The notes: a model not told the origin generated them from the letters alone. 32,717 bases of DNA from Candidatus Poseidoniaceae archaeon (GCA_030741455.1 JASLVI010000002.1:1-32717); one strand, 5' to 3'. Positions 1 to 21,719 are shown, counted from the stretch's first letter. Made by a program: numbers and translations.

Positions 1-3000
1 GTTTCATCGCTGTTATCGCTGAAATCCAATTCCATCCAACCCTGAGTAGGGGTTCCAATAATGACCCAACTGTGAGTGCCATCGATGTAGAGCATTCTGT
101 GCCCGAGGTTGAAGAGAATCCAAGTATCCGTGGCTTGCGAATTGCTGATGAAGACCGAATCGAGTGGTGTTGCATCATAATCAACTCCAGCTTGCATGCC
201 TTGAGCACCCCAGGAAGCGCTACCCGTGCCGTTCCATGTTGCAGTAGTCTCAGACCATCCTGTAGTGAGAACACGATGGACTGTCAGCGTCATGCCAGTA
301 GCACCACTACCGAAGTTCATGTCTTCAAGATACATGCTGTAGGTTACGTCATGAACGTTCATGCTTGGATTGAATGGAATTTGTCCAAAGTCAACGTCAA
401 CGAGCAAGCGGTACTCGTCTTGTGCAGCATCAACTCCAACAACGTTGGTGTTCCCATCAAGGTTGGTGTCGACAAGGCCACTGAAGATCGAAACATCTTG
501 GACGTTGGTATGTGCAAGTTCCTCAATTTCGTTACCAGTTTGGAATTGATACAACCAAATGTGACCATTATCATGGGTCGTTTGAGGATCTCCTATTCCG
601 ACGACCCAACGGGATGATGATGGCCCTGGAATCGATCCGTTAACGGCTTGCACCCACCATTCAAAGGTTGAACCTGGGGCAACATCGTTGGCAAATGTGA
701 AGCTTGTACCTGATATCTGGCTCGACGTTGCAGATTTGAACGTGTACTGTCCAGAAGCATTTCGAATCGTAACAATGTAACCAGTAGCACCTGCGACTGT
801 ATTCCATGTAAGAACAGGTTTATCCAACGTGTCGAGGAGATTATTTGTTGTGTCATAGAGCACAGATCCATCAAGTGGTGAAAGAAGGATTGGTTGTGCA
901 GGAGGTACTACGCCTGCAACGTTGTCGACATAATCAATTCGAAGTGTTGGTCGCCATGATTCTGTTGCGTGTTCTCCAGAGGCGAATGTGTGTAGGCTAG
1001 CGCCGCTACCAACCGCCTTGAGTTGGATGGTCATCGTTTGATTACCGTTTGCAATGTTGGATTGTGCTAACGAAGTAATATCCCATTCAAGCCAACCAGA
1101 TGGAGGCGTAACCGATAGCGTAGAACGCGTAATTTCAGTCGCACTGCACGTTGGAGGTTGCAGCGCAGTAACACTGGATTCTGTGAAGGTAGAACAAGCG
1201 TGAGCGCTCACAGTGAGTGGAGAGACACCTGCAACTTGCGTACGATATAGTTGCAGCATAGTCGAGGTTGGCGTCATCGCACTAGGCCATGGCATTTGTG
1301 AGAGGTCAAATTCAATGAAAATCTCATGATCACCAGAAGAACTTGCACCCAGTTTGAGCGTTGTACTACCGCCATAATTCGTGTTTAATGCGGAAGAGGC
1401 AGTATAGGTATCCGGAGCTGCAGGTAGTAATCCTGTGTCTGTAAAGATGGAGCCGCTTGAGAGATTCACCGTGTGATTACCTGCGCCATCATCATATCCT
1501 TGATCGCTTGGAATTCTAAGTCGATTTACTTGCGACCATTCACCCAAGCGTCCGTATTCACCAGCGATGACATCTTGGAATGAGTAGACTCGCCAATAGA
1601 TCCATTCATCACCTGCTGTTAGATTACCTGCAGTTAGCGTGGTTGTGGAGGCGTCCCACGTGACGTTCAATTCATTCATTCGATCTGTATCCGTTGTCGA
1701 TGTACATCGCACGTCGTAAATCATCCGTGCATCCGAAGCAGCACATATGACATAACCCGTATTGTTGGTATCTGCGCCAGTCCATGAATAGTTGATTTCA
1801 TCAACGCCAGATGGCCTTACTGCCGACAGATTCCATAATGTTGCGCCATCCAAAGGAGCCATGTTAGTCGGCGCGGACTCAACGTACGGGTTTGTCATTC
1901 GATATGTGAGATTTAAGGAAGGTCGAAGACTTGTTGAGACCTCATTGCTTGAGTAGAAATCTACTCGGCCGTTGACTTGGCCGAAGTCTTCCTCGGCTTG
2001 AATGAGAATATCAACTGTGGTTATTCCTGATGAGACGGCATTCTGTAGCAACTTGGTGAGTACACCTTCCATCCAGGTCCAACTTCCGTTGAGTTGCCAA
2101 GTTCCATCGAATGGTATGTCTGTATCCGTTGAGTGATAAGCACCTGGTGAGTTCCATTGTGTGGAATTTGTTGCATTGTTCCAATTAGCATCCGCATCGA
2201 AAGCTGTGTTAATCATAGATACGCTCGCATATACTTCGCCAGATCCTGTTGCAGGACCTTGAAGTGATAGATTCGCCTTCATGATTTCGTAATTACCGGA
2301 GATTGGCAACTTGGTGAGATCAATCGAAAGAATCATTGAAGAGCGTTGTGAAGACCCGGTTGTGTATCCTGATCGACCAACACTTATCCAACGGGAATTG
2401 ACCAGATTCGTGTTAGCCACGCCTGAGTCAAGGGTTGTATCCGTGATGAAACCTGATGGCTCATTGTATGCTGGTAGGAAACCGCCCTCTGAGACGTTGA
2501 TGTAGCCCCATGTGCTGTTAATTTCATGACCAACGTCGTGTGGAATGTGGAAGATCGAACTTGTCGAACGTGGACCAAGCATCTCATCGTTCACAGGTTG
2601 TACGAACCATCGGATGCTTTGATTTGTTGAAAGATCGTTTGCTGGTTGGAAAGACAGGTTCTGCAAATCGAACATTGCTGAATCAGTTCGTGAATCATAA
2701 ATTGTGAACCCTTGCATAATGTCTGTATCATCGTTCTGAATGAAGACCTTCCAATCGTCGATGTTGGCTGAATTGGAGTGTGTCCACGTCATGACAGGGC
2801 GAGTGGATGGTTCTGGAACGTGCGTGCTCAAGTCCCAAGCCATGTCGCCATCCACTGGAAGGGCATTGCTTGCAGCAACGGTTGGAATTGTTGCAGTTCC
2901 GTCCGTCCAGGTTAGGTTGAGCCAAGGTCGTTGGGTGGAGAGACCTTCCGTACTTGTGAACGTAATCAGTGCATCCGACGAATCACTGGTCATCAATGCG

Positions 3001-6000
3001 ATTGAAAGATAAGAATCGCCATTGGCCATAGCTGCCTGCACCAATTCGGTAACATCCCAATCCATCCAGTCTGCAGATGCAGAAGCACTCAGGTCGCTCA
3101 AGGATCCAACGTCTGTCCCAATCGCACGACCACCATCGGCACTCCAGTTGTTGGTTCCGTCATATGTCGAGTTGTTGAGGCCAGTCGTCCAGGTTTGTAG
3201 GACTGGACGCACTGCGACTTGTACGTTGGTATCCGAACCAGATTGCGCCCATAACGAGAGTTCTGCATTGGTGACCCGAGCATTGCTTGGCGTTGGAAGT
3301 TGATTGAGCGGTATCTTGAGCAGTGCGCTCGTATGATAACCGCTTCCCAATTCACCGACCTTGAGGGTCGTTGATGCTGAATGGTTTTGTTGACCTTCGA
3401 TGCCACCTTCGGCAACCCATGTATCGATGAAGTGTGGAAGTTGAAGATCTGGCATCGCTTCATGATGTCGAATCTCAACCGCTGCACTGGTCGAGGAGAG
3501 GTTCCACGTTACCAAAGAAGGTAGGTTGAAGTGGAAGGTTTGTGACCAATTTCCGAGTTGGTTGGTTGTCGAAATCGCACGAACTCGCCAGTACCATGTC
3601 TTACCATCATCGAGATCATTGGTCGGCGTGTATTCTTTGTTTGCAAGGTCAAATCCAGAATTTGACCATGAAGTAGCAATGCTCATATCGCTGCTATCGA
3701 ATGTGTCTGTTGTATCCATCTGAACAGCATATCCACTAACTGAAACGGCTGAAGAGTGTGTCCAATTCATCAATGGACGATAAACAGGTTCTGGATTAAC
3801 GCCTGGGGCGATGCTCCATGTTCCATTGAGCGGCAAGACTGGAACTGGTTCGATCGGCAGAGCGTTTGAACCAGGCACATAAACAAAGGTAAGTTCAGGC
3901 CGCTTTGCTTCAGCTGCCGTACCTGGATGGAACAGTACGTCACGGATTTGTCCGCTTCCTGCACCGACGATTCCAAGAATGAAATCCGCAGAGTGATTGT
4001 TTCGCATTGCGTTTTGAACTGCAAGCGTAACGTTCCAATTTACAGAGGAACTGGAGGTGTATCCCGTTCCAATACTGACTGAATCAAGGAGAGAGGAGCG
4101 TTCATTTCCTTTTGCACCGACACTGTTCCAGGTATTCGTACCATCGTAGGTCGCCCATGTCGCCCCATCTTCAGTCCAACCGTGCTGTGTGTTTTCCCAT
4201 GCCCCGACTACTGGCGTTCCAAATGGGAAATCGCTGAGATGGAATTCAAGATTTGCAGATTCCACTGCATAGCCTGATGGAAGGAATGTCGTAGAGAGAT
4301 CGCATCCAAACAACACTGTGGTTTCCGATGGAATCGTATTGTAGGAAACCTGTAGTTCAGTTTCAGAACCATAGTTTGAATTTGGCATACCCGAATCAAT
4401 GTAGGTATCGTCACAAGCAGGATGGAGACCATCTGAACTTGCATTACCTTGCTTGAGGCGGAATTCGTATCGATCACCACCAAGCCATGTTGAGTTTAGG
4501 GCGCTGATGAGGAAGGATGAGTACGACCATTCTCCATGACGCCCATCCGAATCAACATGCAACATTCGCCAGTTGTACATGTGGCCTGCTTCTAAACTGT
4601 CTGCTCCACTAAAACTCAATTCCCCATCGCTCGGAGCGAAGTCAGAATCGACACGTGTATCAATCCGAGCAACACGATCATGGAAGAGATTGTCCGTTGA
4701 AAGTTCAAAGATCATGTCATACGATGCAGATGTGGAAGATGACCACGTCAATGTCGGCGTGGTATTTCCAGTGAAATTATGACCTGTCTGATTCCACAAG
4801 GTTTCCCCATCATATGGTGAAGTGATGGCGGGAGCGACAGTGACCGGAGTAGACCAATCGTATTTGATGTAGAGTTTTGGCTTGTCGCCATCGTTGGTTG
4901 CATCAGAGGAATGGAAGGTTGCCGAATCGATACCGTTGTTGGCAGCATAAGCGCCGTTTTGAGAGCGAGCAGTTAGAGCAAAGTCAATCGAATCAGGCCC
5001 GCTGTTATCGAGATGTTGCTGTAGAACTGAGGTCAAATCAAAGGCAAAGTCATCGCTTGTTTGGGAGCCCATTACACCTGAATCTGAAGCGTAGCCAAGT
5101 TCTTCGCGACCTCCATCGTCCCACAATTGACTGGATGTTGGTCTTCGCCATGTGACCTCGTCTTCAATCCAAACGTCTACTGAGTCCATTTGATGCAATG
5201 CAAGGGATGGTGAACCACTTGATGTGGACCGGGTCAAATTGAGAGATGCATCGAGAATGGTTGCATTGGAATGCAGGCCGAGGTGATGGAAATTGATTCG
5301 GAAATGCGAAATCGATTCACGGTTTGAGGTGACTTGAGTCATGATGGTTGTCGATGCTCCATAATTGCTGTTCTTGTTGTCCTCATCCACATACGTATCC
5401 TCAATGAAGACAACATTGTCGGAGAGATCATCGATATCGACGGCTAGGGACGCTGTTCCGTCTGCATAGGTCGTAATATCGTGCGATGGCAACTGGAAAT
5501 GACCGCTTGTCCAATCGCTCAGGATTCCCGTTGAATCCATTGCGCGCATCCGATAGTGCATTTCCGTCCCATTATCGAACGCATCGGTTGAAGGGACGTC
5601 GAGTGCACCTGACGCACCCATCGTAAAGCTCGAGGATTGGGTGTCGGAGTTGTACAACCAGTTGTAATTGTCCTGATCGCTCTTGAAGCCATCATCCACT
5701 GAAAGTTGTACTTCAACGAGAATTCCTGAATATGAAGTCCAGGTCATACTCGGCGTTAGATCAGCGGAAAGTACGAAATCACCGCTCATCAATGGTGCAC
5801 CATCATCGACAAAGTTCGGTGTGATCGTTCCACCAGAACCTGCTGTTGAAGTTGAAGAATCGACGCGGAGGCTTGGACGGTCCCCCATGTTCATGGTTTC
5901 ATTCAAGGCACACTCGTATTGAGCATCGTGTGCAGAGATAAGAAGGTCAAGCGAGGATGCGCTGGAAGCAACTGCACGTTGAGCGAGGGCCGTCACATTG

Positions 6001-6539
6001 AGTTGAACGTTCGATGACCCGCCTGTCGGTCCAAGTGGGGCAGTGACGATTGGAGGCTCCCAGTCTGAACGGTCAGAGCCGTCATTGGCCCCGGTTTCAC
6101 CCCAGACAAGCGTGCCATCTCGAGTGTTCCATGTAGCATTCGCATCCCATGAAACAGAGGTTGATGCTGGATAAATCGCAAGTCCATCCGTTGGACCGCT
6201 GTTTGAACAAACAAGATCTAGGCGTGCAGAGTGAATCGTGTCAGTAGAGGCAAAATTGAGCGGGAACGAGATGAGGAGGCGTCCTTCACTCGAACCTGAA
6301 ACACCGAGAAGACCTGTATCTTCGCCAGCGTAGTTATCGGCTGGATTGTCCGAATCGATGTATGTGTCCAATCCAGGATTGATGGTTGAGATGACATGTT
6401 GAACGGCCGGCTCTTCTTCAAGCAGTTCGGGTGCAGGGAAGGCTGAAGGAACAAAAACATCAGCGAGAAGGAACATCAAAACCAATGTCATTGCTGTGAA
6501 GACGTTTCGATTTTTGGTACTGGTTGTCATGGCGCTCAT
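1..6539 (-). CDS. Giant secreted modular surface protein, 3'-partial (at least 2179 aa; the C-terminus lies beyond position 1). About seven tandem ~330-aa supermodules, each an Fn3-like beta-sandwich plus a DNRLRE/CBM96-like domain.
   Basis: Absent from the ORF track, which appears to list only ORFs closed by a stop inside the window. I translated the minus frame with codons at 3-5, 6-8 ... 6537-6539 and found no stop in all 2179 codons. The upstream in-frame stop is at 6606-6608. The first start is ATG 6539, with a second ATG at 6530. The N-terminus MSAMTTSTKNRNVFTAMTLVLMFLLADVFVPSAFPAPE looks like a Sec signal or anchor. The other five frames here give only ORFs of 181 aa or less. Recurrent motifs are listed in the findings. 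Confidence 0.85.
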   Translation of the reverse strand, partial: MSAMTTSTKNRNVFTAMTLVLMFLLADVFVPSAFPAPELLEEEPAVQHVISTINPGLDTYIDSDNPADNYAGEDTGLLGVSGSSEGRLLISFPLNFASTDTIHSARLDLVCSNSGPTDGLAIYPASTSVSWDANATWNTRDGTLVWGETGANDGSDRSDWEPPIVTAPLGPTGGSSNVQLNVTALAQRAVASSASSLDLLISAHDAQYECALNETMNMGDRPSLRVDSSTSTAGSGGTITPNFVDDGAPLMSGDFVLSADLTPSMTWTSYSGILVEVQLSVDDGFKSDQDNYNWLYNSDTQSSSFTMGASGALDVPSTDAFDNGTEMHYRMRAMDSTGILSDWTSGHFQLPSHDITTYADGTASLAVDIDDLSDNVVFIEDTYVDEDNKNSNYGASTTIMTQVTSNRESISHFRINFHHLGLHSNATILDASLNLTRSTSSGSPSLALHQMDSVDVWIEDEVTWRRPTSSQLWDDGGREELGYASDSGVMGSQTSDDFAFDLTSVLQQHLDNSGPDSIDFALTARSQNGAYAANNGIDSATFHSSDATNDGDKPKLYIKYDWSTPVTVAPAITSPYDGETLWNQTGHNFTGNTTPTLTWSSSTSASYDMIFELSTDNLFHDRVARIDTRVDSDFAPSDGELSFSGADSLEAGHMYNWRMLHVDSDGRHGEWSYSSFLISALNSTWLGGDRYEFRLKQGNASSDGLHPACDDTYIDSGMPNSNYGSETELQVSYNTIPSETTVLFGCDLSTTFLPSGYAVESANLEFHLSDFPFGTPVVGAWENTQHGWTEDGATWATYDGTNTWNSVGAKGNERSSLLDSVSIGTGYTSSSSVNWNVTLAVQNAMRNNHSADFILGIVGAGSGQIRDVLFHPGTAAEAKRPELTFVYVPGSNALPIEPVPVLPLNGTWSIAPGVNPEPVYRPLMNWTHSSAVSVSGYAVQMDTTDTFDSSDMSIATSWSNSGFDLANKEYTPTNDLDDGKTWYWRVRAISTTNQLGNWSQTFHFNLPSLVTWNLSSTSAAVEIRHHEAMPDLQLPHFIDTWVAEGGIEGQQNHSASTTLKVGELGSGYHTSALLKIPLNQLPTPSNARVTNAELSLWAQSGSDTNVQVAVRPVLQTWTTGLNNSTYDGTNNWSADGGRAIGTDVGSLSDLSASASADWMDWDVTELVQAAMANGDSYLSIALMTSDSSDALITFTSTEGLSTQRPWLNLTWTDGTATIPTVAASNALPVDGDMAWDLSTHVPEPSTRPVMTWTHSNSANIDDWKVFIQNDDTDIMQGFTIYDSRTDSAMFDLQNLSFQPANDLSTNQSIRWFVQPVNDEMLGPRSTSSIFHIPHDVGHEINSTWGYINVSEGGFLPAYNEPSGFITDTTLDSGVANTNLVNSRWISVGRSGYTTGSSQRSSMILSIDLTKLPISGNYEIMKANLSLQGPATGSGEVYASVSMINTAFDADANWNNATNSTQWNSPGAYHSTDTDIPFDGTWQLNGSWTWMEGVLTKLLQNAVSSGITTVDILIQAEEDFGQVNGRVDFYSSNEVSTSLRPSLNLTYRMTNPYVESAPTNMAPLDGATLWNLSAVRPSGVDEINYSWTGADTNNTGYVICAASDARMIYDVRCTSTTDTDRMNELNVTWDASTTTLTAGNLTAGDEWIYWRVYSFQDVIAGEYGRLGEWSQVNRLRIPSDQGYDDGAGNHTVNLSSGSIFTDTGLLPAAPDTYTASSALNTNYGGSTTLKLGASSSGDHEIFIEFDLSQMPWPSAMTPTSTMLQLYRTQVAGVSPLTVSAHACSTFTESSVTALQPPTCSATEITRSTLSVTPPSGWLEWDITSLAQSNIANGNQTMTIQLKAVGSGASLHTFASGEHATESWRPTLRIDYVDNVAGVVPPAQPILLSPLDGSVLYDTTNNLLDTLDKPVLTWNTVAGATGYIVTIRNASGQYTFKSATSSQISGTSFTFANDVAPGSTFEWWVQAVNGSIPGPSSSRWVVGIGDPQTTHDNGHIWLYQFQTGNEIEELAHTNVQDVSIFSGLVDTNLDGNTNVVGVDAAQDEYRLLVDVDFGQIPFNPSMNVHDVTYSMYLEDMNFGSGATGMTLTVHRVLTTGWSETTATWNGTGSASWGAQGMQAGVDYDATPLDSVFISNSQATDTWILFNLGHRMLYIDGTHSWVIIGTPTQGWMELDFSDNSDE

Positions 6540-6578
6540 TCGACCTAAGATGTGGAAGGTTATGACTGATTCGGCCTG

Positions 6579-6598
6579 CGCCCCCCTATAGGGGGGCG
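6579..6598. promoter_or_regulatory. Perfect 20-bp palindrome CGCCCCCC-TATA-GGGGGGCG in the divergent intergenic region between the giant gene and rfcS.
   Basis: Read directly: cgcccccctataggggggcg. It has 8-bp G/C arms around a central TATA. It lies 40 nt from ATG 6539 (minus strand) and 30 nt from ATG 6628 (plus strand). Confidence 0.5.
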
Positions 6599-6602
6599 GG
6601 AA

Positions 6603-6618
6603 TTCAATTCAAAAAATT
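6603..6618 (+). promoter_or_regulatory. Candidate TATA-like box (TTCAATTCAAAAAATT) for rfcS.
   Basis: Same TTCAAA-type motif as seen about 30 nt upstream of other starts in this window. Its position predicts a TSS near 6633-6638, downstream of ATG 6628, which favours ATG 6661 as the start. Confidence 0.35.
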
Positions 6619-6660
6619 CCGAACCGAATGTTGAAAGATGCTCGCCAATCTCTAGGGTTC

Positions 6661-7617
6661 ATGAGCGAACTTTGGGTGGAACGTCATCGCCCACAAAGTG
6701 TTGGTGAAATTCGAGGGCAAGCGTCCGTTGTGAGTCGATTGTCAGTCTATGCTGAACACAAAGAATTCCCACATCTTCTCTTCGCAGGACCGCCGGGCAC
6801 AGGAAAGACAACTGCTGCAATGGCACTGACCAAAGATGTCTTCGGTGAACATTATCGAGACAATCTCCTGGAAATGAACGCCTCGGACGAACGCGGTTTG
6901 GATAAAATCCGATCAAAAGTCAAACAATTCGCACGGACACAACCGTATGGTGGTGCAAAATTCAAGATTATCTTCCTCGATGAGTCCGATGCGTTAACCA
7001 ACGATGCGCAAGGCGCCCTGCGCCGAATCATGGAACAATACGCTGAAACCTGCCGATTTATCCTGTCGTGTAATTATTCATCAAAAGTGATTGAACCGAT
7101 TCAGTCGAGATGCGCAGTATTTCGGTTTCGACCATTGGCCGATTCAGAAGTTCTCGACCAGGTCAAACATGTTGCGAAGGAAGAAGGCGTGACGCTCGAA
7201 GATGATGCTGCAGAAGCGCTTGCAAAAATTGCTCAAGGTGACCTACGACGAGCGATTACTGCACTCCAGGTCTCTGCAGCAATCAGTGAGAAAATTACCC
7301 GTTCGATCGTCTATGAAACGTCAGCTACAGCACCTCCAGAGGCACTTCACCAGTACATCATGGCTTGCAAAGACGATGGATTCCATGTAGCAAGGCGCCG
7401 TTTGCAGGAATTACTCAACAAATACGGCCTTGCTGGCACCGATTTTGTCGGACAACTTCACAGGGAATTGTACAATGTTGATTTTATTTCAGAAATGGAC
7501 AAACTCGATCTTACTGAAATTATGGCCGAAGTTGATTACCGGCTTGTTGAAGGTGGAGGAGAACGTATTCAACTCGATGCAATGACGGCAAAACTCGTCG
7601 CCATGTTGAGAAGTTGA
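6661..7617 (+). CDS. rfcS: Replication factor C small subunit (clamp loader AAA+ ATPase).
   Basis: N-terminal ELWVERHRP box, Walker A GPPGTGKTT, Walker B IIFLDESDALT and the SRC motif QSRCAVFRF. Length is 318 aa from ATG 6661. An in-frame ATG at 6628 would add 11 atypical residues. Confidence 0.93.
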   Translation: MSELWVERHRPQSVGEIRGQASVVSRLSVYAEHKEFPHLLFAGPPGTGKTTAAMALTKDVFGEHYRDNLLEMNASDERGLDKIRSKVKQFARTQPYGGAKFKIIFLDESDALTNDAQGALRRIMEQYAETCRFILSCNYSSKVIEPIQSRCAVFRFRPLADSEVLDQVKHVAKEEGVTLEDDAAEALAKIAQGDLRRAITALQVSAAISEKITRSIVYETSATAPPEALHQYIMACKDDGFHVARRRLQELLNKYGLAGTDFVGQLHRELYNVDFISEMDKLDLTEIMAEVDYRLVEGGGERIQLDAMTAKLVAMLRS

Positions 7618-8861: not shown

Positions 8862-8992
8862 GCCGGGGTGGCGTAGTTGGTAGCGCGTCGGACTCATAGG
8901 GCAGCCTTCAAGGCGATCGTATGACGTGCAAAGCCCCTTGTGGTGTCTGAGACATCCGAAGGTCGCGGGTTCGAGCCCCGCTCCCGGCACCA
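8862..8992 (+). tRNA. tRNA with CAT anticodon, elongator Met type (or tRNA-Ile2 if C34 is agmatidinylated), interrupted by a 55-nt canonical 37/38 intron; CCA is encoded.
   Basis: Manual cloverleaf. Acceptor GCCGGGG/TCCCGGC (with G7-U66). D arm GCGT-AGTTGGTA-GCGC. Anticodon stem TCGGA/TCCGA with loop CTCATA[intron]A. Variable loop AGGTC. T arm GCGGG-TTCGAGC-CCCGC. Discriminator A, then CCA. It is not initiator-like: G1-C72 is present and there is no GGG/CCC in the anticodon stem. Confidence 0.92.
8899..8953 (+). other. tRNA intron with an hBHBh' splicing motif.
   Basis: The central 4-bp helix is CTCA (8893-8896) paired with TGAG (8948-8951). It is flanked by 3-nt bulges TAG (8897-8899) and ACA (8952-8954). 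The outer helix is GGCA (8900-8903) paired with TGTC (8944-8947). Both splice sites fall after the second bulge nucleotide. Confidence 0.8.
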
Positions 8993-9032
8993 CCATCGCA
9001 TTGTTGAAGGGCTGGAAACCATTCCAACCATC

Positions 9033-10379
9033 ATGGCACAAGGTCTTGAGGTAGGAAATCGGGTTCGTCTCAAACTTACAACACTTGATGGTGAGACCGA
9101 AATTGAAGGCGTCGTTTTACCATCTGCACTTCCAGATCATATCACGATCAAACTGGCAAATGGATACAACGTGAGTCATCCTCTCGAGTCCATTGAAGTT
9201 CTATCTTCAACCAAATCTGAGCCAACCGCGACATCCCCTTCTGTCAGTGACGCACCTCAGAACCAAGACCTTCCTACTGTTCGAATTATTCACACCGGCG
9301 GAACCATTGCATCGAAAGTGGATTACACAACTGGCGCAGTAACTGCACAATTTGAGCCATCAGAATTGGTTGAACATGTGCCTGAACTACTCAAAATCGC
9401 CAACCTTCAAGTTCACAAAATTGGCAACATGTTCAGCGAAGATATTCGACCTAACCACTGGAATCAAATTATTGAGGCGACCGAGCAAGCATTCGAAGAG
9501 GCGTGCGATGGTGTAGTCGTCACCCATGGCACGGACACACTTCACATCACAGCATCTGCAATCGCCTTTGCTTGGAGTGGCCAAGGCGGGAACCCACCAG
9601 GAAGAATCGCCTTTGTAGGATCTCAACGTTCGAGTGATAGAGCCTCATCAGATGCTGCTCAGAATCTCATATCCGCCGTAAAATGGGCTGCAGAAGGGCC
9701 ACAACCTACTGGAGAACTCAGCGATGCTGTCGTCGTATCCATGCATGAAACCAGTGACGATGGTGCATGTTCCATACACGCAGCGACGGGTGTTCGTAAA
9801 CTTCACTCAAGTCGCCGAGATGCATTCCGACCCGTCAATACAACACCTCTTGCAACCGTTCGAATTGAAAACAAACTCGTTGAACTTCAACTTGAAGGTC
9901 ACTATCAAGAGGCGAGAATGAATATTGTTCCACGAACGATAACAACAAAGGCAGATCGATACGATGAGACAATTGTCATTCGTCAAATGGTTGCAGGTCC
10001 ATGGCTGACAACACGTGAGGTTGAAGATGCAGTGGGATCCAATGTTGATGCTTTGGTCATTCATGGAACAGGATTAGGTCATTTGCCCATAGAAAATCCG
10101 AACGATGATGCACCTCAAAATATTGAATTACATCAAGCATTGGAACAACTATCTCTTCCGATATTAATCGTCAACCAATGCATACATGGACCCGTCAATA
10201 TGAACGTCTACTCGAAAGGACGGATTCAACAAAATATCGGTCTGCTCGGCCATGGCATCACGTCATCTCCAGAAGCTGCAGTCGTAAAGCTTCATTTCGC
10301 CTTATCACACCAATTGGATGTTCCTACAATTATGGGCCAAAACCTACTCGGAGAACAACAACAAACCATTCTGAACTAA
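9033..10379 (+). CDS. gatD: Glutamyl-tRNA(Gln) amidotransferase subunit D.
   Basis: Asparaginase-type motifs IIHTGGTIASKVDYTTGAV and VVTHGTDTL follow a GatD-type N-terminal beta domain. Length is 448 aa. The ORF-track GTG start at 8940 would read through the tRNA, so I chose ATG 9033. Confidence 0.9.
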   Translation: MAQGLEVGNRVRLKLTTLDGETEIEGVVLPSALPDHITIKLANGYNVSHPLESIEVLSSTKSEPTATSPSVSDAPQNQDLPTVRIIHTGGTIASKVDYTTGAVTAQFEPSELVEHVPELLKIANLQVHKIGNMFSEDIRPNHWNQIIEATEQAFEEACDGVVVTHGTDTLHITASAIAFAWSGQGGNPPGRIAFVGSQRSSDRASSDAAQNLISAVKWAAEGPQPTGELSDAVVVSMHETSDDGACSIHAATGVRKLHSSRRDAFRPVNTTPLATVRIENKLVELQLEGHYQEARMNIVPRTITTKADRYDETIVIRQMVAGPWLTTREVEDAVGSNVDALVIHGTGLGHLPIENPNDDAPQNIELHQALEQLSLPILIVNQCIHGPVNMNVYSKGRIQQNIGLLGHGITSSPEAAVVKLHFALSHQLDVPTIMGQNLLGEQQQTILN

Positions 10380-10387
10380 GCGATTCG

Positions 10388-11980
10388 ATGAAGAACCTTA
10401 TCGGCTCTGGTGAGAATATGGCAAGCCCACATGGTGACCCAATCACTGAACTTCGGTCACGACGTGAGCGTGCCCGATTCGGAGGTGGGCGCAAAGCGCT
10501 GGAAGCCATTCGCGCTACTGGCCGTGGAACTGCGAGGGACCGAATCGACCTTCTCCTCGATCCTGACTCCTTCGTCGAAGTTGACACCTTCGTAACCCAT
10601 CGAACCAAAGATCACAACATGTTCCTGCATCAAACGCTCGGCGATGGTGTCGTCACAGGACATGGTACAATCGATGGTCGACGAGTATACTGTTTTGCAC
10701 AAGATTTCAGCGTCCATGGAGGTTCGATGGGCGAAATGCATGCAAAGAAGATTGCCAAACTCGTAGAAATGGCTGAGCGTTCGAAAACACCCCTAGTCTG
10801 CGTCTGGGATGGTGGAGGCCAACGTGCCCACGATGGAATCGATGCACTGGCTGGAACGGGTGAATTGCTCGATCGTTTGGTCCAATGCAGTGGGCGTGTT
10901 CCTGTCATCAGTCTCGTCTTAGGCCCAGTTGTTGGCGTGTCTGCATTGGCAGCGAGTCTATCCGATTTTACAATTTTAGGCGAAGAACATGGCCAACTGT
11001 TCCTATCATCGCCTTTGGAAACACCTGAAGTTCAAGCTGGAGAAGTGGATGCTGCAGGACTTGGTGGTGCAAATCTCCATGCATCCCGTTCAGGAATTGC
11101 TTGCTTGGTTGCCGATGATGAAGATGATGCGTTCTTCCTTGTCCAAGAAATCCTTTCCTACCTTCCAGATCACAACGATGCTGAACCACCTTATGTTGCA
11201 ACAGAAGATCCAATCAATCGTATGAACGATGAATTGGAATCGCTTGTTCCCGACAATCCCAACCGCCCTTACAATATGGTGAGTGTTGTCGAAGAGGTTG
11301 TTGACGATGGTGAATTCCTCGAACTTTTCCCAAACTACGCAGAGAACATCATCATTGGTTTCGCTCGGCTTGATGGTCGAAGCATTGGCGTGGTTGGTAA
11401 TCAACCAAATGTACTCGCAGGATGCTTGGACATCGACGCATCCATCAAAGCAGCACGATTCATCCGACTTTGCGACGCCTTCAACATCCCTCTCGTCACC
11501 TTTGAAGATGTACCTGGATTCTTACCTGGTGTCGTTCAAGAATGGGGAGGAATTATTCGGCACGGTGCTAAATTGCTGTTCGCGTACGCTGAGGCGACGG
11601 TGCCGAAATTAACGCTCGTCACTCGAAAGGCTTACGGTGGCGCCTATCTTGCCATGTCATGCAAACACTTGCAGAGCGATTACAACGTTGCATGGCCTAC
11701 CGCTGAACTTGCCGTTATGGGAGCAGAAGGTGCGGTTAACATCATTCATCGACGAGAAATTAATGCTGTTGATGACGACAAAAAGGAAGAGGTTCGCCAA
11801 CAATTGGTCGCTGAATACAAGGCGAAATTTGGCGACCCGTACGTTGCAGCACGGAACGGTTGGCTTGACGATGTTATCGAACCGACTGAAAGCCGTCTAC
11901 GATTGTGCAGAGCCCTTGCAATCCTGCGATCAAAGCGTGAATGGAGCCCTCCGAAAAAGCACGGAAACATTCCACTATGA
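10388..11980 (+). CDS. Acyl-CoA carboxylase carboxyltransferase subunit (propionyl-CoA carboxylase beta / methylmalonyl-CoA decarboxylase alpha family).
   Basis: 530 aa with family-typical blocks: GTARDRIDLLLDPDSFVEVD, FAQDFSVHGGSMGE, GVVGNQP, ARFIRLCDAFNIPLVTFEDVPGFLPG and RKAYGGAYLAM. The track start at 10178 overlaps gatD in another frame, so I used ATG 10388, which follows the gatD stop by 8 nt. Confidence 0.88.
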   Translation: MKNLIGSGENMASPHGDPITELRSRRERARFGGGRKALEAIRATGRGTARDRIDLLLDPDSFVEVDTFVTHRTKDHNMFLHQTLGDGVVTGHGTIDGRRVYCFAQDFSVHGGSMGEMHAKKIAKLVEMAERSKTPLVCVWDGGGQRAHDGIDALAGTGELLDRLVQCSGRVPVISLVLGPVVGVSALAASLSDFTILGEEHGQLFLSSPLETPEVQAGEVDAAGLGGANLHASRSGIACLVADDEDDAFFLVQEILSYLPDHNDAEPPYVATEDPINRMNDELESLVPDNPNRPYNMVSVVEEVVDDGEFLELFPNYAENIIIGFARLDGRSIGVVGNQPNVLAGCLDIDASIKAARFIRLCDAFNIPLVTFEDVPGFLPGVVQEWGGIIRHGAKLLFAYAEATVPKLTLVTRKAYGGAYLAMSCKHLQSDYNVAWPTAELAVMGAEGAVNIIHRREINAVDDDKKEEVRQQLVAEYKAKFGDPYVAARNGWLDDVIEPTESRLRLCRALAILRSKREWSPPKKHGNIPL

Positions 11981-14650
11981 GTTGTTCATGTTCTCTACAC
12001 GGGCAAGTAATCCGCCACCAGATTGGGCCTGCTGAAGCGGTTCTCGCGGTGGTTTTCGGAATTGGAAGAGAAGCCATCCGACCATACCAAGCAATGGTAG
12101 AATGATGAGGGCTGCAACCATTGTACTTCCAGAACTTGATTCAGGATCATTGCCGACACTTGGCGTTGGTTGTTCATCTGGAACAAGATATTGTAGTCGA
12201 AGCGATACATCTGCAAACGAAGGATCGCGTGCGACGATGTCAATATTCAACGGCGCCCCTGCTTGCAATTCAACATCGAATCGTTCTTCGCAGGTTCCAT
12301 TGGAATCACAGGTGCGTTGTCCTACAACTTCAACGCCATCAAATCGAACAATGACATCCATGTCATCACCATCAGCATCACGCCATTCCCACTGGAGTAG
12401 AAGGAAGGAATCATCGCTTTGCTCAACCGATCCGTTTGAGAGCGTCGGTTTGTCGGGCGTGGGCTCAATGGTGATGTTCATTCGATTGGAAAATATCGTA
12501 TTACCATCGGTTACATTCAGCCACCACGCTTGATCAGCACCCCATTTATCGAGGAGTGCAGAAACGAGTAATTCCTGCCCTGAAAGTGCTAACATAACGT
12601 TTGATTCACCCACAGATTCCACAGACCATGTCAATGGATCGCCATCAACATCGGAGGCGAACTGGGATAGATCGATTAAGATGGTTTCTTCCTCATCCAT
12701 CGACAACGACCAAGCTGATTCATCGACAACGAACGCATCATCAACAGCTTCGATACGAAGTGGTACATCAGCCACCAGAGGTGGATTGAATCCATCCGAG
12801 ATCGTTAACTGAAGCACTTCAGCACCATTCGCATCTGGAAGAGGCGTGAATTGGATGAGAGGTAAATCAGTTGATACACTCCATGAGACCTTGTCACCGC
12901 TACCTTGTGACAAACCGTTAATCTGAACCATTAGAGGTTGTTGCTCAGGATCGAAGAAATAATTTTCATAATTCAAGAAGAGACTTTCTCCATCTTCAGT
13001 AAGGGTTTGTTGATCGATGGTAGAAATCCGAAGAATTTGGTCATTTACAGGAACAACGCGCCCATCAAGTGTCACATTCGTTTGGTCGAGGATATCTCCT
13101 GTTGCTTCTAGATCAAGTTCGATGCGTGTCGTCCCCTCCCATTCTTCATCGACTGAGTGATACAACGTAACTGACGAAGCATCGGGACTGATCACGACAA
13201 GGAAATGTGATTCATTGTCGAGGACGGTCGCATTGAGAATACGAATGGGCTGGCCATCGGGGTCTGTAGCAATATCTGATGCATACAACACCATCGAATC
13301 ACGTTGAGGGACAATGAATTCGGGAAGAGGTTCTGCAAGTTCAATCGGATCGTTGGTTCGGATGAAATCAAAGCTCGCAAAACCTGTTCCGCCTTCTACT
13401 GATACGACCAGCCGAAGTTCGTGTGGACCGGGTGCAATTCCTTGCATTGGGATTGTACACGAGACATTCTCTTGAACGATGGTCGCCTGATATGTAGTCA
13501 TATTGTTCAAGAGACAATGCGCTTCAATCGTCCACATCGAAGGTAGATCAGCATAAACGTCTCCATTTCGCATCGACCATAATGCTTCGAACTCTGCATC
13601 ATCTTGCGGCCCAAACACCGTACCATTGAGACTTGTAACGTTCGTGATTCGAATCAATTTCGCATCATCGAGCAACTCGTCGACATAGCCGTTTGAATCC
13701 GAGGAAGAATGCAAGTTATTCTCTCGATTGAATGCTTCTCTAAATTTGGAATGATCGCCACGTAATGTGACATCGAGATACGGGAGAATATGCTCCATTG
13801 CATGATCAATTTGTTCTTCTTGTGTTAACGAAGCGTCCCCATCATTAAAATCCTCAATAAACGATGATGTGTCTTGATATTGGTAATGATTTGCACCGAG
13901 TGAATGTAGAATTTGCCAAGCAAGACCGTCCACATTTTCCAAAACAGGAATCACGTTTTCTGTGGCAGGGGCGATTTCATCCGCACTTCCTGTGATATAG
14001 AGAGCCACATTTGGAACGGCACCACTGATGATAAGCGGATCTTGAACTTCATCGACTTGCATCGCCAATCCTACCAAGGCACGAGGTGGTTGAATCGATT
14101 CGTTATCTACGAAGTTCTCCCAGTTGATGTAAACGTTTGAAGCCCATGTTGCACCATAACCATGACCGATAAGCCCCCAATGGTTTTCATCGACCGCACC
14201 ATACATGCCTAAGACAACTTCATGGGTTTTGTTCGCTTCATGCATCCAGTCCCGAACATCGAGGATTGATTCAATGAGGCTTTGAAAATTTGGCGTGTTA
14301 TCCGTGGTTAATTCCGAATGGATGTAGACCATGGTGCCACGTTGAGCGATACGCGTTGAGATAAGCATGTAGTTGTCTGGCGATTCGTTCTCATCGATGA
14401 GAAGGAGAACCCATGGAAACGGCCCATTTCCAGCAACTTCTTGCTCTTCACCGCTGCTGAGTGCAGGATACACCAAACGGTGATCAGGCCCGAATGCACC
14501 TGAATCTGCATCAAAATCAACGAAGCCTACTGGGAAATTTTCACCATTGTGTGTTGGTTGGAAATGTTGATCCTCTTCTGGTACAGCCAACGTTGTTGAA
14601 AGAGTTGAAAGAAACAACAAACAAACGAGAACACATGCTCGCTGGCTCAT
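11975..14650 (-). CDS. Anchored surface protein: signal peptide, alpha/beta-hydrolase-like domain with a Gly at the nucleophile position, cadherin-like repeats and a C-terminal TM anchor.
   Basis: Signal MSQRACVLVCLLFLSTLSTTLAVPEE. Nucleophile elbow reads LIGHGYGA. Repeats carry DPDGQPI, DVDGDPLTW and VNDQ/VDDA motifs. C-terminal anchor MVAALIILPLLGMVGWLLFQFRKPPRE. ATG 14650 is preferred over 14674 because a CTCAAAT box sits 29 nt upstream of 14650. Confidence 0.85.
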   Translation of the reverse strand: MSQRACVLVCLLFLSTLSTTLAVPEEDQHFQPTHNGENFPVGFVDFDADSGAFGPDHRLVYPALSSGEEQEVAGNGPFPWVLLLIDENESPDNYMLISTRIAQRGTMVYIHSELTTDNTPNFQSLIESILDVRDWMHEANKTHEVVLGMYGAVDENHWGLIGHGYGATWASNVYINWENFVDNESIQPPRALVGLAMQVDEVQDPLIISGAVPNVALYITGSADEIAPATENVIPVLENVDGLAWQILHSLGANHYQYQDTSSFIEDFNDGDASLTQEEQIDHAMEHILPYLDVTLRGDHSKFREAFNRENNLHSSSDSNGYVDELLDDAKLIRITNVTSLNGTVFGPQDDAEFEALWSMRNGDVYADLPSMWTIEAHCLLNNMTTYQATIVQENVSCTIPMQGIAPGPHELRLVVSVEGGTGFASFDFIRTNDPIELAEPLPEFIVPQRDSMVLYASDIATDPDGQPIRILNATVLDNESHFLVVISPDASSVTLYHSVDEEWEGTTRIELDLEATGDILDQTNVTLDGRVVPVNDQILRISTIDQQTLTEDGESLFLNYENYFFDPEQQPLMVQINGLSQGSGDKVSWSVSTDLPLIQFTPLPDANGAEVLQLTISDGFNPPLVADVPLRIEAVDDAFVVDESAWSLSMDEEETILIDLSQFASDVDGDPLTWSVESVGESNVMLALSGQELLVSALLDKWGADQAWWLNVTDGNTIFSNRMNITIEPTPDKPTLSNGSVEQSDDSFLLLQWEWRDADGDDMDVIVRFDGVEVVGQRTCDSNGTCEERFDVELQAGAPLNIDIVARDPSFADVSLRLQYLVPDEQPTPSVGNDPESSSGSTMVAALIILPLLGMVGWLLFQFRKPPREPLQQAQSGGGLLARVENMNNS

Positions 14651-14672
14651 ATACACCTGTTCATGTCTGAAC

Positions 14673-14679
14673 ATTTGAG
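14673..14679 (-). promoter_or_regulatory. Candidate TATA-like box CTCAAAT for the 891-aa surface-protein gene.
   Basis: 29 nt upstream of ATG 14650 on the minus strand. It matches the recurring motif and spacing seen elsewhere in the window. Confidence 0.4.
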
Positions 14680-16108: not shown

Positions 16109-16360
16109 ATGATACCAGTCGACCCTGGAACAGCAACGACAATACGTGCTATTGACGAAGGCTCGGAAGAATTGTTTGGTGGCTTTTGGCCATTTATCCG
16201 TAGAACATTGATGCTTTTCCTACCGCTTTGGGTATGGCTTCTTTTGTGGGCTGCAGGCTTACCGAATATTATCTCAGCATTATTTTCAGGACTCTCTCTG
16301 TCTCTCGTTGTTGCGATAGAACAGTACAAACTTCGTCAGATTGCCAGAAAAGACAATTAA
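16109..16360 (+). CDS. Small integral membrane protein (83 aa, 2 TM helices).
   Basis: Begins at an ATG 9 nt after the previous stop. TM-like segments are TLMLFLPLWVWLLLWAAGL and IISALFSGLSLSLVVAI. It is in the same orientation as the rest of the operon. Confidence 0.55.
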   Translation: MIPVDPGTATTIRAIDEGSEELFGGFWPFIRRTLMLFLPLWVWLLLWAAGLPNIISALFSGLSLSLVVAIEQYKLRQIARKDN

Positions 16361-16382
16361 TGACGGCCTACTATCCTTAGGC

Positions 16383-16991
16383 ATGACCTTATTTGAGATG
16401 TTGACGGAATTTGTCGGAATCGAAGCTCCTTCCTTAATGGAAATCATATTCGTGAGTTGTGCAGTACTTGGCGGAATACTATTTTTCATCATGATGCTCC
16501 TCATGATGGTAGGTGATGTTCTTGGAGGAGTTACTGACGCAATCGGTTTGGATATCGATGCTGGTGGTGGAGCATTTGAGATTTTGAGTGTTCAGGGCCT
16601 TTCCGTTGCAGTCATGATGTTTGGCTTGACTGGAATGTTTGGCCTTTCAGCAACGGGAAATGATGTCGTCGCTGTTCTTGCAGGTGGAATAGGCGCAGCA
16701 GCCGGCATGTATGGCATGGGGAAAATGATGTATGGAATCAATCAACTCCAAGCAGATGGTACAATCAACTACAACGATGCAATCGGCCAACGCGGCCAAG
16801 TCTATTCTCGCATCAAGCCAAACGAAACTGGTGAGATTCAAGTCCCTGTGGACGGTACACTCAAGACATTGTTGGCCAGAGCGCAAGACAAGTCGATATT
16901 GATCCCATCTGGAGAATTTATCAGAGTGGTCGATATCATCGGATCGACAATGATTGTCGCCCCACTTGAAGACGGTTCTTCTGAAGAGTGA
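16383..16991 (+). CDS. NfeD-like membrane protein (N-terminal TM helices plus a C-terminal OB-fold domain).
   Basis: A multi-TM N-terminus is followed by GQRGQVYSRIKPNETGEIQVPVDGTLKTLLARAQDKSILIPSGEFIRVVDIIGSTMIVAPLE, which is typical of the NfeD C-terminal beta-barrel. It sits immediately upstream of a flotillin gene, the classic NfeD-SPFH pairing. A TTG at 16341 is an alternative start. Confidence 0.75.
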   Translation: MTLFEMLTEFVGIEAPSLMEIIFVSCAVLGGILFFIMMLLMMVGDVLGGVTDAIGLDIDAGGGAFEILSVQGLSVAVMMFGLTGMFGLSATGNDVVAVLAGGIGAAAGMYGMGKMMYGINQLQADGTINYNDAIGQRGQVYSRIKPNETGEIQVPVDGTLKTLLARAQDKSILIPSGEFIRVVDIIGSTMIVAPLEDGSSEE

Positions 16992-17051: not shown

Positions 17052-18440
17052 ATGGCGGACGCAGGTTTTTGGGCAGTTTTCATCGTTTTTGGCGTATTGG
17101 CTATCGCAGCCTTTGGAATAATTTTGGTCGCAACACGCTACAAGCGTTGTGCTTCTGACGAAATTCTCGTTGTCTATGGTCGTATTCGTGGAGGCAAAGC
17201 ATCGAGATGTATACACGGTGGTGCCGTAATGGTTTGGCCATTGATTCAGGAATACAAGAAAATCTCACTTATCCCGATGACAATTTCGATTCCTCTTGAC
17301 AATGCTCTTTCTTTGCAAAACATTCGTATCAATGTTCCATCGACATTCACTGTTGGTGTAAGCACAAACCCGCTCATCATGAATAATGCAGCAGAGCGTC
17401 TGCTTCACCTTACAAAGAATGATATCGAGGGAATGGCACAAGAGATTATTCTCGGTCAACTCCGTTTGACGGTTGCAAGTTTGACCATCGAACAAATCAA
17501 CCAAGATCGTGACGCATTCCTCGAACTCATTCGTGACAACGTTGGTGCTGAACTTCACAAGTTGGGGCTTTTCCTCATCAACGTCAACATCATCGATATT
17601 ACTGACGAGTCCAACTACATCAACAGCATCGGTAAGAAAGCTGCTGCAGGCGCAGTCAACAAGGCACTCGTCGATGTTGCAAACGCTGAGCGTGATGGTG
17701 CAATCGGTAAGGCAAACGCAGACCGAGACCGAGAAGTTCAGGTCGCTCAAAACGTTGCTGAATCCGAGAAAGGAAAGAAGGCTGCAGAAGTCGACCGACG
17801 TGTTTTCGTTCAACAACAAGAAGCAACTGGTGTACAGGGAGAAAACCTGTCTCGTGCTGAGATTGCTTCGTATCAGGCTGACCTTGAAGAAAAGGAAGCT
17901 GAAGCAATGCGACGTGCTGAAGTTGCTCGGCGTACTGCTGAAATGGAAGTCCAAAAAGCACAATACAATCTTGAACAAGAGCGTCTTCGTGCTGAAGAAA
18001 TCGTTCGTGAAGAGATTTCTAAGACACAGATTGAAATTGCTGCAGAAGCAGAAGCAGAGCGCCAACGCCGTATCGCTCAAGGTGAGGCAGATGCAGTTCT
18101 AGCTCGATACAACGCCGAAGCAGAAGGTACCAAGGCGGTCCTTGAAGCAAAGGCGAATGGTTACAAGCAACTTGTTGCAAGTGCTGGCGGTGATGTCAAA
18201 GCCGCTGCAACGCTCCTCATGGTCGAGAAGATCGAAGAGATTGTTGCACGACAAACCGAAGCAATTGCTAACCTCCAAATCGACAAGATTACCGTTTGGG
18301 ATTCAGGCAGCGGTGGCGAAGGTGGAAGCACTGCGAACTTCGTTTCGTCGTTGATTCGGTCATTGCCTCCTGTACATGATGTAGCCAAGATGGCTGGTGT
18401 TGATCTACCAGACTATCTCGGCTCGATGAAGGAAGAATGA
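17052..18440 (+). CDS. Flotillin-like SPFH/band-7 protein.
   Basis: N-terminal TM FWAVFIVFGVLAIAAFGIILV, an SPFH core (VWPLIQEYKKISLIPMTISIPL...), then a long Glu/Ala/Arg-rich coiled coil (flotillin repeats) and a C-terminal assembly region. 462 aa. Confidence 0.9.
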   Translation: MADAGFWAVFIVFGVLAIAAFGIILVATRYKRCASDEILVVYGRIRGGKASRCIHGGAVMVWPLIQEYKKISLIPMTISIPLDNALSLQNIRINVPSTFTVGVSTNPLIMNNAAERLLHLTKNDIEGMAQEIILGQLRLTVASLTIEQINQDRDAFLELIRDNVGAELHKLGLFLINVNIIDITDESNYINSIGKKAAAGAVNKALVDVANAERDGAIGKANADRDREVQVAQNVAESEKGKKAAEVDRRVFVQQQEATGVQGENLSRAEIASYQADLEEKEAEAMRRAEVARRTAEMEVQKAQYNLEQERLRAEEIVREEISKTQIEIAAEAEAERQRRIAQGEADAVLARYNAEAEGTKAVLEAKANGYKQLVASAGGDVKAAATLLMVEKIEEIVARQTEAIANLQIDKITVWDSGSGGEGGSTANFVSSLIRSLPPVHDVAKMAGVDLPDYLGSMKEE

Positions 18441-21318: not shown

Positions 21319-21624
21319 ATGAAGGTCGTTCGATTTTCAAATCTTGGCACAAATGTTCGCGAAGCAATGCAAGGTGCAAGATGGATTCTTCTTGACCAGC
21401 ATGATATCCAAAATGCATTATCTGCGCTTATGTTTGCAGAACTTGACGGGGTATTGGTAGCCGTCGATCATAGAAAATCAACACCTGACAACGGGCTTTG
21501 GCGACGAGCAGTACATCTGCTTCTCGTTTCTGGACAGGAAGATGCTGAAGAGATCCGCCAAAAAAGTGGTATTACGATGGTAATTTCAAGCGATGATGCC
21601 GCACTTGAGGATTACCTATGGTAA
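21319..21624 (+). CDS. Hypothetical 101-aa protein with an alternating beta/alpha (Rossmann- or flavodoxin-like) pattern.
   Basis: The ATG lies 3 nt after the pelota stop. The composition looks normal, with hydrophobic strands VVRF, WILLD, VLVAV, HLLLV and TMVIS. I recognise no family. Confidence 0.55.
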   Translation: MKVVRFSNLGTNVREAMQGARWILLDQHDIQNALSALMFAELDGVLVAVDHRKSTPDNGLWRRAVHLLLVSGQEDAEEIRQKSGITMVISSDDAALEDYLW

Positions 21625-21698
21625 TGGGTCCGGAGGGAATTGAACCCTCGATCTTCGCCTTGTAAGGGCGACGTCATAAACCCCTAGACCACAGACCC
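21625..21698 (-). tRNA. tRNA-Val (anticodon TAC), no intron, CCA not encoded.
   Basis: The reverse complement folds as acceptor GGGTCTG/CGGACCC, D arm GTCT-AGGGGTTTA-TGAC, anticodon arm TCGCC-CTTACAA-GGCGA, variable loop AGATC, T arm GAGGG-TTCAATT-CCCTC and discriminator A. 74 nt. Confidence 0.92.
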
Positions 21699-21719
21699 AA
21701 CCCTCCGTCGATGGAGTCG

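Follow-up and report, generated by a model that had tools for sequence, protein, structure and literature searches.

The DNA analysed here, a stretch of 32,717 nucleotides from a Candidatus Poseidoniaceae archaeon (GCA_030741455.1 JASLVI010000002.1:1-32717; the window), opens inside a very large minus-strand gene whose product, here called the giant, carries domains of the DNRLRE/CBM96 family. The giant is a predicted type I membrane protein of ~3056 amino acids (aa) and a core, vertically inherited surface component of Candidatus Poseidoniaceae. Its frame is free of stops for 2179 codons, from 6539 down to position 3, and runs past the window edge at position 1. An in-frame stop was looked for across these codons and none occurs in the translation, as an earlier reading of the sequence (the original prediction) had held; the nearest one precedes the ATG at 6539 by 24 codons. 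By simple arithmetic, the chance of such a run in DNA of 48% GC is ~(61/64)^2179, or ~e^-105. The window protein is 99.4% identical over 2176 aa to a 3056-aa orthologue (P0002), from which it differs at 12 of 2176 residues. Between positions 1 and 6539, the list of open reading frames (ORFs) holds just 72..617 (+) and 3098..3487 (-), because ORFs reaching the contig end go unlisted. The gene is therefore not hidden, as had been supposed; its absence is a listing artefact, and it has been called and automatically named in public metagenome-assembled genomes (MAGs).

The first ATG is replaced by CCG... in a 99%-identical strain (locus L001), and the P0002 gene call begins at the window's Met4; position 6530 is therefore the likelier start, and the true start of the gene is probably this Met4. 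The signal peptide that had been proposed is recognisable in a Sec-signal-like N-terminus with a basic n-region (KNR), a hydrophobic core at about aa 14-33 in which hydropathy windows exceed 1.8, and the sequence PSAFPAP. The N-termini of orthologues have a matching layout.

A self-iterated hidden Markov model (HMM) recovered seven DNRLRE-type domains with a period of 305-343 aa, and a second HMM recovered six modules of ~125 aa between them (Table 1). Pairwise identity among the seven domains is just 18-27%, in line with the strongly divergent repeat described in the original prediction, and the motifs quoted there are all found in the translation. That prediction counted seven supermodules of an Fn3-like and a DNRLRE-like part; the seven DNRLRE domains stand, and the array opens with one of them, so that it consists of 7 DNRLRE and 6 Fn3-like modules.

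Table 1. Features of the giant gene, its upstream region and its downstream paralogue (window coordinates unless a locus is named).
Feature	Position	Strand	Remarks
Giant gene, 5' 71%	1..6539	-	2179 codons, last ends at position 3; C-terminal ~880 aa past edge
N-terminus with Sec-type signal peptide; Met4 (6530) the probable start	6432..6539	-	hydropathy, orthologue N-termini, L001
DNRLRE/CBM96 domain 1	5871..6368	-	aa 58-223; HMM
Fn3-like module 1	5436..5813	-	aa 243-368; HMM
DNRLRE/CBM96 domain 2	4875..5399	-	aa 381-555; HMM
Fn3-like module 2	4467..4832	-	aa 570-691; HMM
DNRLRE/CBM96 domain 3	3894..4409	-	aa 711-882; among best-conserved head domains
Fn3-like module 3	3474..3848	-	aa 898-1022; modelled; Pfam Ig_Rha78A_N sub-threshold
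DNRLRE/CBM96 domain 4	2922..3425	-	aa 1039-1206; modelled
Fn3-like module 4	2496..2873	-	aa 1223-1348; HMM
DNRLRE/CBM96 domain 5	1917..2441	-	aa 1367-1541; least conserved
Fn3-like module 5	1464..1871	-	aa 1557-1692; HMM
DNRLRE/CBM96 domain 6	945..1412	-	aa 1710-1865; best Pfam/NCBIfam stretch, most conserved
Fn3-like module 6	546..893	-	aa 1883-1998; Pfam fn3 21.7 bits, cut-off 25
DNRLRE/CBM96 domain 7	3..497	-	aa 2015-2179; window edge removes last ~12 aa
Divergent intergenic region, giant/RFC small-subunit gene	6540..6627	.	88 bp; RFC = 6628-7617 +
Stalk-only paralogue	L001:19180-21765; L002:19135-21753; L003:19222-21834; L086:19222-21837		

A search of 5.8 billion proteins returned 69 relatives, nearly all 3000-3100 aa long, several of which NCBI automatically names "DNRLRE domain-containing protein". 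Three of them (P0002-P0004, 3056 aa) are 99% identical and supply the C-terminus and the full length; the complete protein has exactly seven DNRLRE domains, the heptameric array that had been proposed. Past the window edge, P0002 continues with the end of DNRLRE domain 7, ~8 Ig-like repeats at 2196-2921 with Big_2, Invasin_D3 and Big_1-type matches (the stalk), a transmembrane helix at 2923-2957, and a tail of ~100 aa made up of an acidic run, a (GPxGPAP)n proline-rich stretch and a Trp-rich terminal motif. All residues of the giant are assigned to signal peptide, DNRLRE, Fn3-like, Ig-like, transmembrane and tail segments. The window protein, the last 880 aa of P0002 and the precomputed Pfam lists of the 69 relatives show no catalytic domain, and a hidden catalytic domain was rejected, none occurring in any part of the full-length protein.

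The Trp-rich motif, R-V-D-D-D-G-T-E-W...T-W-[WY]-Y-R...D-W-x-E-W, occupies the last ~40 aa (P0002 aa 3016-3056, outside the window). Across 32 tails, six of its residues are invariant; an acidic run precedes it in 60/66 orthologues and a GPxGP proline-rich repeat in 52/66. AlphaFold2 (AF2) models the motif as a small beta-meander with a predicted local distance difference test score (pLDDT) >90. It belongs to no Pfam family and has no significant match in the PDB, where the nearest likeness is to single beta-propeller blades (non-significant). A reading of this tail as a WW domain was rejected, as nothing was found in Pfam and the confident AF2 model gave no WW matches.

Directly downstream of the giant, outside the window, there is usually a gene for a protein of ~870 aa, separated from it by a gap of 8-47 bp or overlapping it by 4 bp. 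Its product has a signal peptide, Ig-like repeats, a transmembrane helix, an acidic cytoplasmic tail and a related Trp-rich end motif, and is 24% identical over 802 aa (E = 1.8e-17) to the C-terminal region of the giant (stalk, transmembrane helix and tail). In the most divergent lineage (L085), this stalk-only partner is absent and the giant itself bears the partner-type tail motif.

The assignment of the head domains to the DNRLRE/CBM96 family, first offered in the original prediction, was borne out at the levels of both sequence and predicted structure. The NCBIfam DNRLRE_dom model (NF033679) matches seven stretches of the window protein (E = 9e-91, 302 bits, cut-off 34), and Pfam CBM96 (PF24517) matches five (E = 1e-59, 201 bits, cut-off 26). 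A profile of the seven domains matches PDB entries 8wab ("DNRLRE domain-containing protein", E = 4.7e-11) and 7vbo (the alginate lyase module TM6-N4, founder of CBM96, E = 2.9e-9), with weak matches to activin prodomains. One supermodule, Fn3-like module 3 with DNRLRE domain 4, was modelled with AF2 using 20 orthologous sequences (mean pLDDT 74.5, predicted template-modelling score (pTM) 0.63); the domain cores score mostly 70-93, several loops are of low confidence, and the Fn3-like module reaches 80-93 over most of its length. In a Foldseek search of the PDB, the DNRLRE half matched 8wab (E = 1.4e-7, TM-score 0.74 on target) and 7vbo (E = 9e-7, TM-score 0.69 on target), and the supermodule also matched the pro-activin and BMP10 prodomains. 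On the basis of this model, the predicted fold of the head domains is a CBM96-type beta-sandwich. The other half, for which an Fn3-like beta-sandwich had been claimed, matched canonical FnIII domains (PTPRZ FN, TM-score 0.73 on target; TRIM9 fn3, 0.65; PTP-delta, integrin beta4 and fibronectin) and also the N-terminal domains of alpha-L-rhamnosidases. When the single Fn3-like modules were scanned against Pfam, none exceeded the gathering score: module 6 approached fn3 (PF00041; Table 1), module 3 scored 20 bits against Ig_Rha78A_N (PF25788, cut-off 27.4), and of the remaining four, three had no match and module 4 had one spurious weak match. It is thus the predicted fold alone that makes these modules Fn3-like.

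The window protein is rich in serine and threonine (22%) and very acidic (D+E 252 vs K+R 84). Its abundance of N-x-S/T sequons, already remarked on in the original prediction, amounts to 42 against ~30 expected, and sequons are enriched in 8/8 orthologues tested (z 2.5-8.2). K+R make up 3.5% of the giant, as in the window's other exported proteins, compared with 10-13% in the cytoplasmic ones. The signal peptide, the transmembrane helix, the sequon enrichment and the low K+R content suggest an extracellular glycoprotein.

The owner of the gene is Candidatus Poseidoniaceae (Marine Group II archaea, MGII), and the genes around it in the window are housekeeping genes of archaea (RFC small subunit, GatD, PolD small subunit, Pelota/eRF1-like). 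Among species-representative genomes, 194 loci encode a relative, and the best 80 of these all lie in Poseidoniales, Poseidoniaceae or Poseidonia MAGs, bar a few clearly mis-binned contigs. Three loci carry the giant under the names of bacterial MAGs (L020, Rhodobiaceae; L021, Salipiger bermudensis; L080, Verrucomicrobiales), likely through binning contamination of the public assemblies. A profile search of 1.84 billion representatives found ~16 clusters (50% identity) with the full architecture, beyond which it yielded just generic Fn3 arrays or shorter DNRLRE proteins. The RFC gene is divergently adjacent to the giant at every locus examined, down to 32% identity. The gene is also present (L053) in MAG RS440 of a published MGII metatranscriptome study. 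In the table of one MGIIb (Thalassarchaeaceae) MAG, no giant adjoins RFC, which is weak evidence coming from a single MAG.

All 66 full-length orthologues have exactly 7 DNRLRE and 6 Fn3-like modules at nearly equal coordinates, and domain lengths differ among them by a few residues. In 376 of 392 cross-species comparisons, the best match of a domain was the domain at the same position; the array therefore predates the radiation of the family and has been fixed since. This position-matched orthology also led to the rejection of a recent repeat expansion or concerted evolution, and it bears on the word "multivalent" used in the original prediction: the term implies equivalent sites, and the seven domains are paralogues of long standing that are not equivalent, each being conserved at its own position. 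The degree of conservation varies little along the chain (0.43-0.65 per region), with the transmembrane helix and the tail motif among the best-conserved parts. The ratio of nonsynonymous to synonymous substitution rates (dN/dS) of the giant is 0.036 in the comparison with the 99%-identical strain, where 13 differences are nonsynonymous and 105 synonymous, and 0.067 in that with an 88%-identical relative. The corresponding values are 0.086 for GatD and 0.038 for the carboxyltransferase in the first comparison, and 0.009 for RFC and 0.046 for a 302-aa neighbour in the second, GatD and the carboxyltransferase not having been recovered on the contig of the 88% relative. Among relatives of 71-83% identity, the dN of the giant lies below that of the adjacent Big_9 surface protein. 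In these sequence comparisons, the 7+6 composition, the position-matched domains, the low dN/dS and the fixed synteny mark the giant as an ancient, fixed and strongly constrained architecture and not an expanding adhesin repeat.

Giant stalked adhesins include the intimin/invasin type, with Big_1/Big_2 stalks, and the RTX type, such as the ice-binding MpIBP and SiiE; they typically carry near-identical extender repeats of variable copy number. The giant resembles them as a long beta-sandwich chain in which modules of ligand-binding type are held off the cell. It differs in that its modules are old paralogues, fixed in position and number and under strong purifying selection, and in its anchorage by a C-terminal transmembrane helix with a conserved cytoplasmic domain. 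With paralogues 18-27% identical and a 7+6 array throughout the orthologues, it falls outside the variable giant repeat adhesins. With CBM96 (7VBO, 8WAB; NF033679/PF24517) it shares the sequence family and the predicted fold (TM-score 0.69-0.75 on target), the aligned landmarks D-T-Y-x-D ... N-Y-G ... T-W-x-E..TW ... R-P-x-L, and the weak resemblance to TGF-beta/activin prodomains that has been reported for CBM96 (PMC9971899). Unlike those modules, the giant has seven copies per chain, an archaeal membrane anchor and no catalytic module, and its strongly acidic domains lack the alginate-binding Lys/Arg/Tyr residues. Since a carbohydrate-binding module (CBM) in the CAZy sense is joined to a catalytic carbohydrate-active enzyme, the head domains are not CBMs in that sense. 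A description of the DNRLRE domain in surface proteins of archaea dates from 2004, as outlined by Adindla et al. (PMC2447325), and the domain became CBM96 in 2022 (PMC9971899). As that 2004 outline presents them, the DNRLRE proteins of Methanosarcina and other archaea are likewise secreted or surface multi-domain proteins with a DNRLRE domain of ~200 aa; compared with this outline, the giant stands apart in its Poseidoniales lineage (a phylum-level difference), its fixed 7+6 alternation with Fn3-like modules, its Ig-like stalk, its type I transmembrane anchor and its cytoplasmic tail. Faint matches to the disaggregatase-related repeat (PF06848) are on record for many orthologues of the giant.

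The reading that we prefer, with a probability of roughly 0.5, is that the giant is a constitutive, fixed-length, N-glycosylated envelope fibre whose seven non-equivalent lectin-fold heads attach to ligands outside the cell, probably glycans, through a non-canonical mode of binding. The N-glycosylated chain, with its ~21 beta-sandwich domains, would project from the membrane as a fibre of the order of 80 nm if extended, and the Ig-like stalk would hold the head modules away from the membrane. The seven heads could then offer seven different binding surfaces for extracellular ligands, most likely glycans, whether environmental polysaccharide and particles or the glycocalyx of the cell itself or of a neighbour. 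The mode of binding would be distinct from the basic-groove mechanism of characterised CBM96 modules, and the stalk-only paralogue probably works beside the giant in the membrane. A glycan ligand is favoured by analogy, as the characterised members of the fold family all bind polysaccharides: alginate (PMC9971899) and, according to the summary description of 8WAB, chondroitin sulfate (PMC12611786).

Several observations weigh against this reading. TM6-N4 requires K10, K22, K25, K27, K31, R36 and Y159 to bind alginate (PMC9971899). When 7vbo was aligned to the 462 domains present in the 66 orthologues, K10, K22, K27, K31, R36 and Y159 were replaced at all seven positions, and K25 was kept just in domain 4 (K/R in 56/66) and partly in domain 6. 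The net charge per head domain ranges from -6 to -16. Groove-equivalent columns show a within-position conservation no higher than that of other columns (0.61 vs 0.68, p = 0.09), and no ligand site was identifiable from sequence in the seven head domains of these orthologues. A few position-specific K/R residues do occur in the groove (position 34 in domain 2, position 159 in domains 3 and 5, position 25 in domain 4), a number too small to speak for an enrichment of conserved basic residues there. In addition, conservation spread evenly over the whole length would fit a purely structural role equally well, the fibre geometry is extrapolated from domain counts, and in the AF2 model the inter-domain orientation is moderately confident and the loops are poorly modelled. 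Given that most of the binding residues are replaced and that the groove is not preferentially conserved, the alginate-type mechanism in its canonical form has not been kept. The chondroitin-sulfate-binding CBM of a chondroitinase (8WAB, as summarised in PMC12611786) also lacks most of the TM6-N4 residues, so these define one specificity and not the family. The low K+R content is common to the window's exported proteins and so reflects their compartment rather than this domain. The glycan-binding idea of the original prediction thus keeps the support of family and fold, and loses that of the alginate residues, the charge and the groove; as an analogy of fold, it may serve as only a lead.

A multivalent glycan adhesin is plausible. 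The explicit version, in which the canonical groove of each of the seven CBM96 modules would take up an acidic polysaccharide of algal origin (alginate- or glycosaminoglycan-like) and repetition would add avidity, appears improbable. It draws on family membership by HMM and fold, on the fact that both solved relatives bind acidic polysaccharides, and on the link of MGIIa to particles and phytoplankton blooms (PMC6461757), but it must contend with the replaced TM6-N4 residues, the strongly acidic domains and a groove that is not preferentially conserved. Domains that are 18-27% identical and individually conserved point to different roles rather than to avidity, and no copy-number variation was seen in the 66 orthologues. 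The main rival, tentative and on balance unlikely, is a purely structural role, in which the giant and the stalk-only paralogue form the main building block of the MGIIa envelope. They would act as a substitute for a surface layer (S-layer) or as a glycocalyx canopy, as in wall-less Thermoplasmatota, with the CBM96-fold and Fn3 modules as rigid spacers making protein-protein or own-glycan contacts, and not as receptors for external ligands. The fixed copy number and domain lengths, the position-specific and even conservation, the strong purifying selection, the core synteny, the transmembrane anchor with its conserved cytoplasmic mini-domain, the sequon enrichment and the canonical binding groove that is not conserved all argue for it, as does the first description of the DNRLRE domain in archaeal surface and S-layer-type proteins (outlined in PMC2447325; PMC9971899). 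The giant is, however, not mentioned in the MGII literature searched. A length of 3056 aa also far exceeds known S-layer protein sizes, which likewise speaks against a structural role.

Being large, exposed, glycosylated and repetitive, the giant might also be taken for a variable surface antigen, a virus receptor or a virus decoy under diversifying selection, as giant repeat proteins in genomic islands typically are. This is very improbable, given dN/dS values of 0.036-0.067 that are comparable to those of housekeeping neighbours, an evolution slower than that of the adjacent Big_9 surface protein, and a locus and architecture fixed across orthologues; diversifying selection and antigenic variation were rejected on the two dN/dS values. 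A more far-reaching proposal, speculative and doubtful, is that the giant and the stalk-only paralogue are the principal MGIIa envelope glycoproteins and form a canopy of fixed length in which each of the seven non-equivalent head modules has a dedicated partner and the tails assemble under the membrane. In such a canopy, the tail beta-meanders of several chains might form, for example, an oligomeric propeller coupling the canopy to the cell interior.

The 88-bp region between the giant and RFC genes presumably holds the promoters of both. It contains a perfect 20-bp palindrome, CGCCCCCCTATAGGGGGGCG, at 6579-6598 with TATA at its centre, which recurs in the 99%-identical strain and might serve as an operator or as a promoter acting in both directions; in the corresponding region, L002 has another palindrome, CTCTCCCGTAGGGAGA, and L003 none that is obvious. 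Further into the window, the ORFs for GatD (8940-10379, +) and the carboxyltransferase (10178-11980, +) overlap by ~200 bp because the longest-ORF rule overshoots, orthologue calls starting at the equivalents of ~9033 and ~10388. The Big_9/Cadherin_4-like protein at 11975-14674 (-) is an exported protein of 899 aa with a C-terminal transmembrane helix, syntenic in all related loci, and no gene nearby evolves faster than the one that encodes it (30-37% identity, compared with 41-47% for the giant at the same loci). An NfeD-like gene with a weak Pfam match (16341-16991, +) lies directly upstream of an SPFH/flotillin gene (17052-18440, +), the two forming a classical NfeD-SPFH pair; the MGII literature has drawn attention to flotillin as a possible aggregation or adhesion factor (PMC6461757). 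The sole tRNA in the window is a tRNA-Val (anticodon TAC) at 21624-21699 (-). A second giant ORF (24871-32679, -; 2602 aa) has Big_9/cadherin-like and tandem-95-type repeats. It matches Pfam Pilin_N, the N-terminal motif of archaeal type IV pilins and archaellins, at 25264-25401 (E = 2.9e-8), ~175 aa before its C-terminus and not at the N-terminus, and the motif represents an unusual anchor at the C-terminus or else a small pilin gene that the frame reads through.

Very little has been established about the cell surface of the Marine Group II archaea, which are abundant and have not been cultured. The MGII literature searched treats adhesion via archaella, thrombospondin-like proteins and flotillin only (PMC6461757 among others), and no paper on this protein was found in the literature searched on the domain family and the MGII surface. 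The domain families are already known and the gene is automatically annotated in public MAGs, so that nothing is overturned; what makes the giant unusual is its fixed 7+6 array, along with its stalk-only partner and a cytoplasmic mini-domain that is conserved. The giant is useful as an annotation and well suited to experiment, and it would make a convenient family marker. Found in every MGIIa genome examined, ~3,050 aa long, syntenic, strongly constrained and rich in lectin-fold modules, it is an obvious candidate for how MGIIa cells meet particles, polymers, neighbours or viruses. If true, the canopy proposal would define how the cell surface is built in the archaea that are most abundant in the plankton of the surface ocean.

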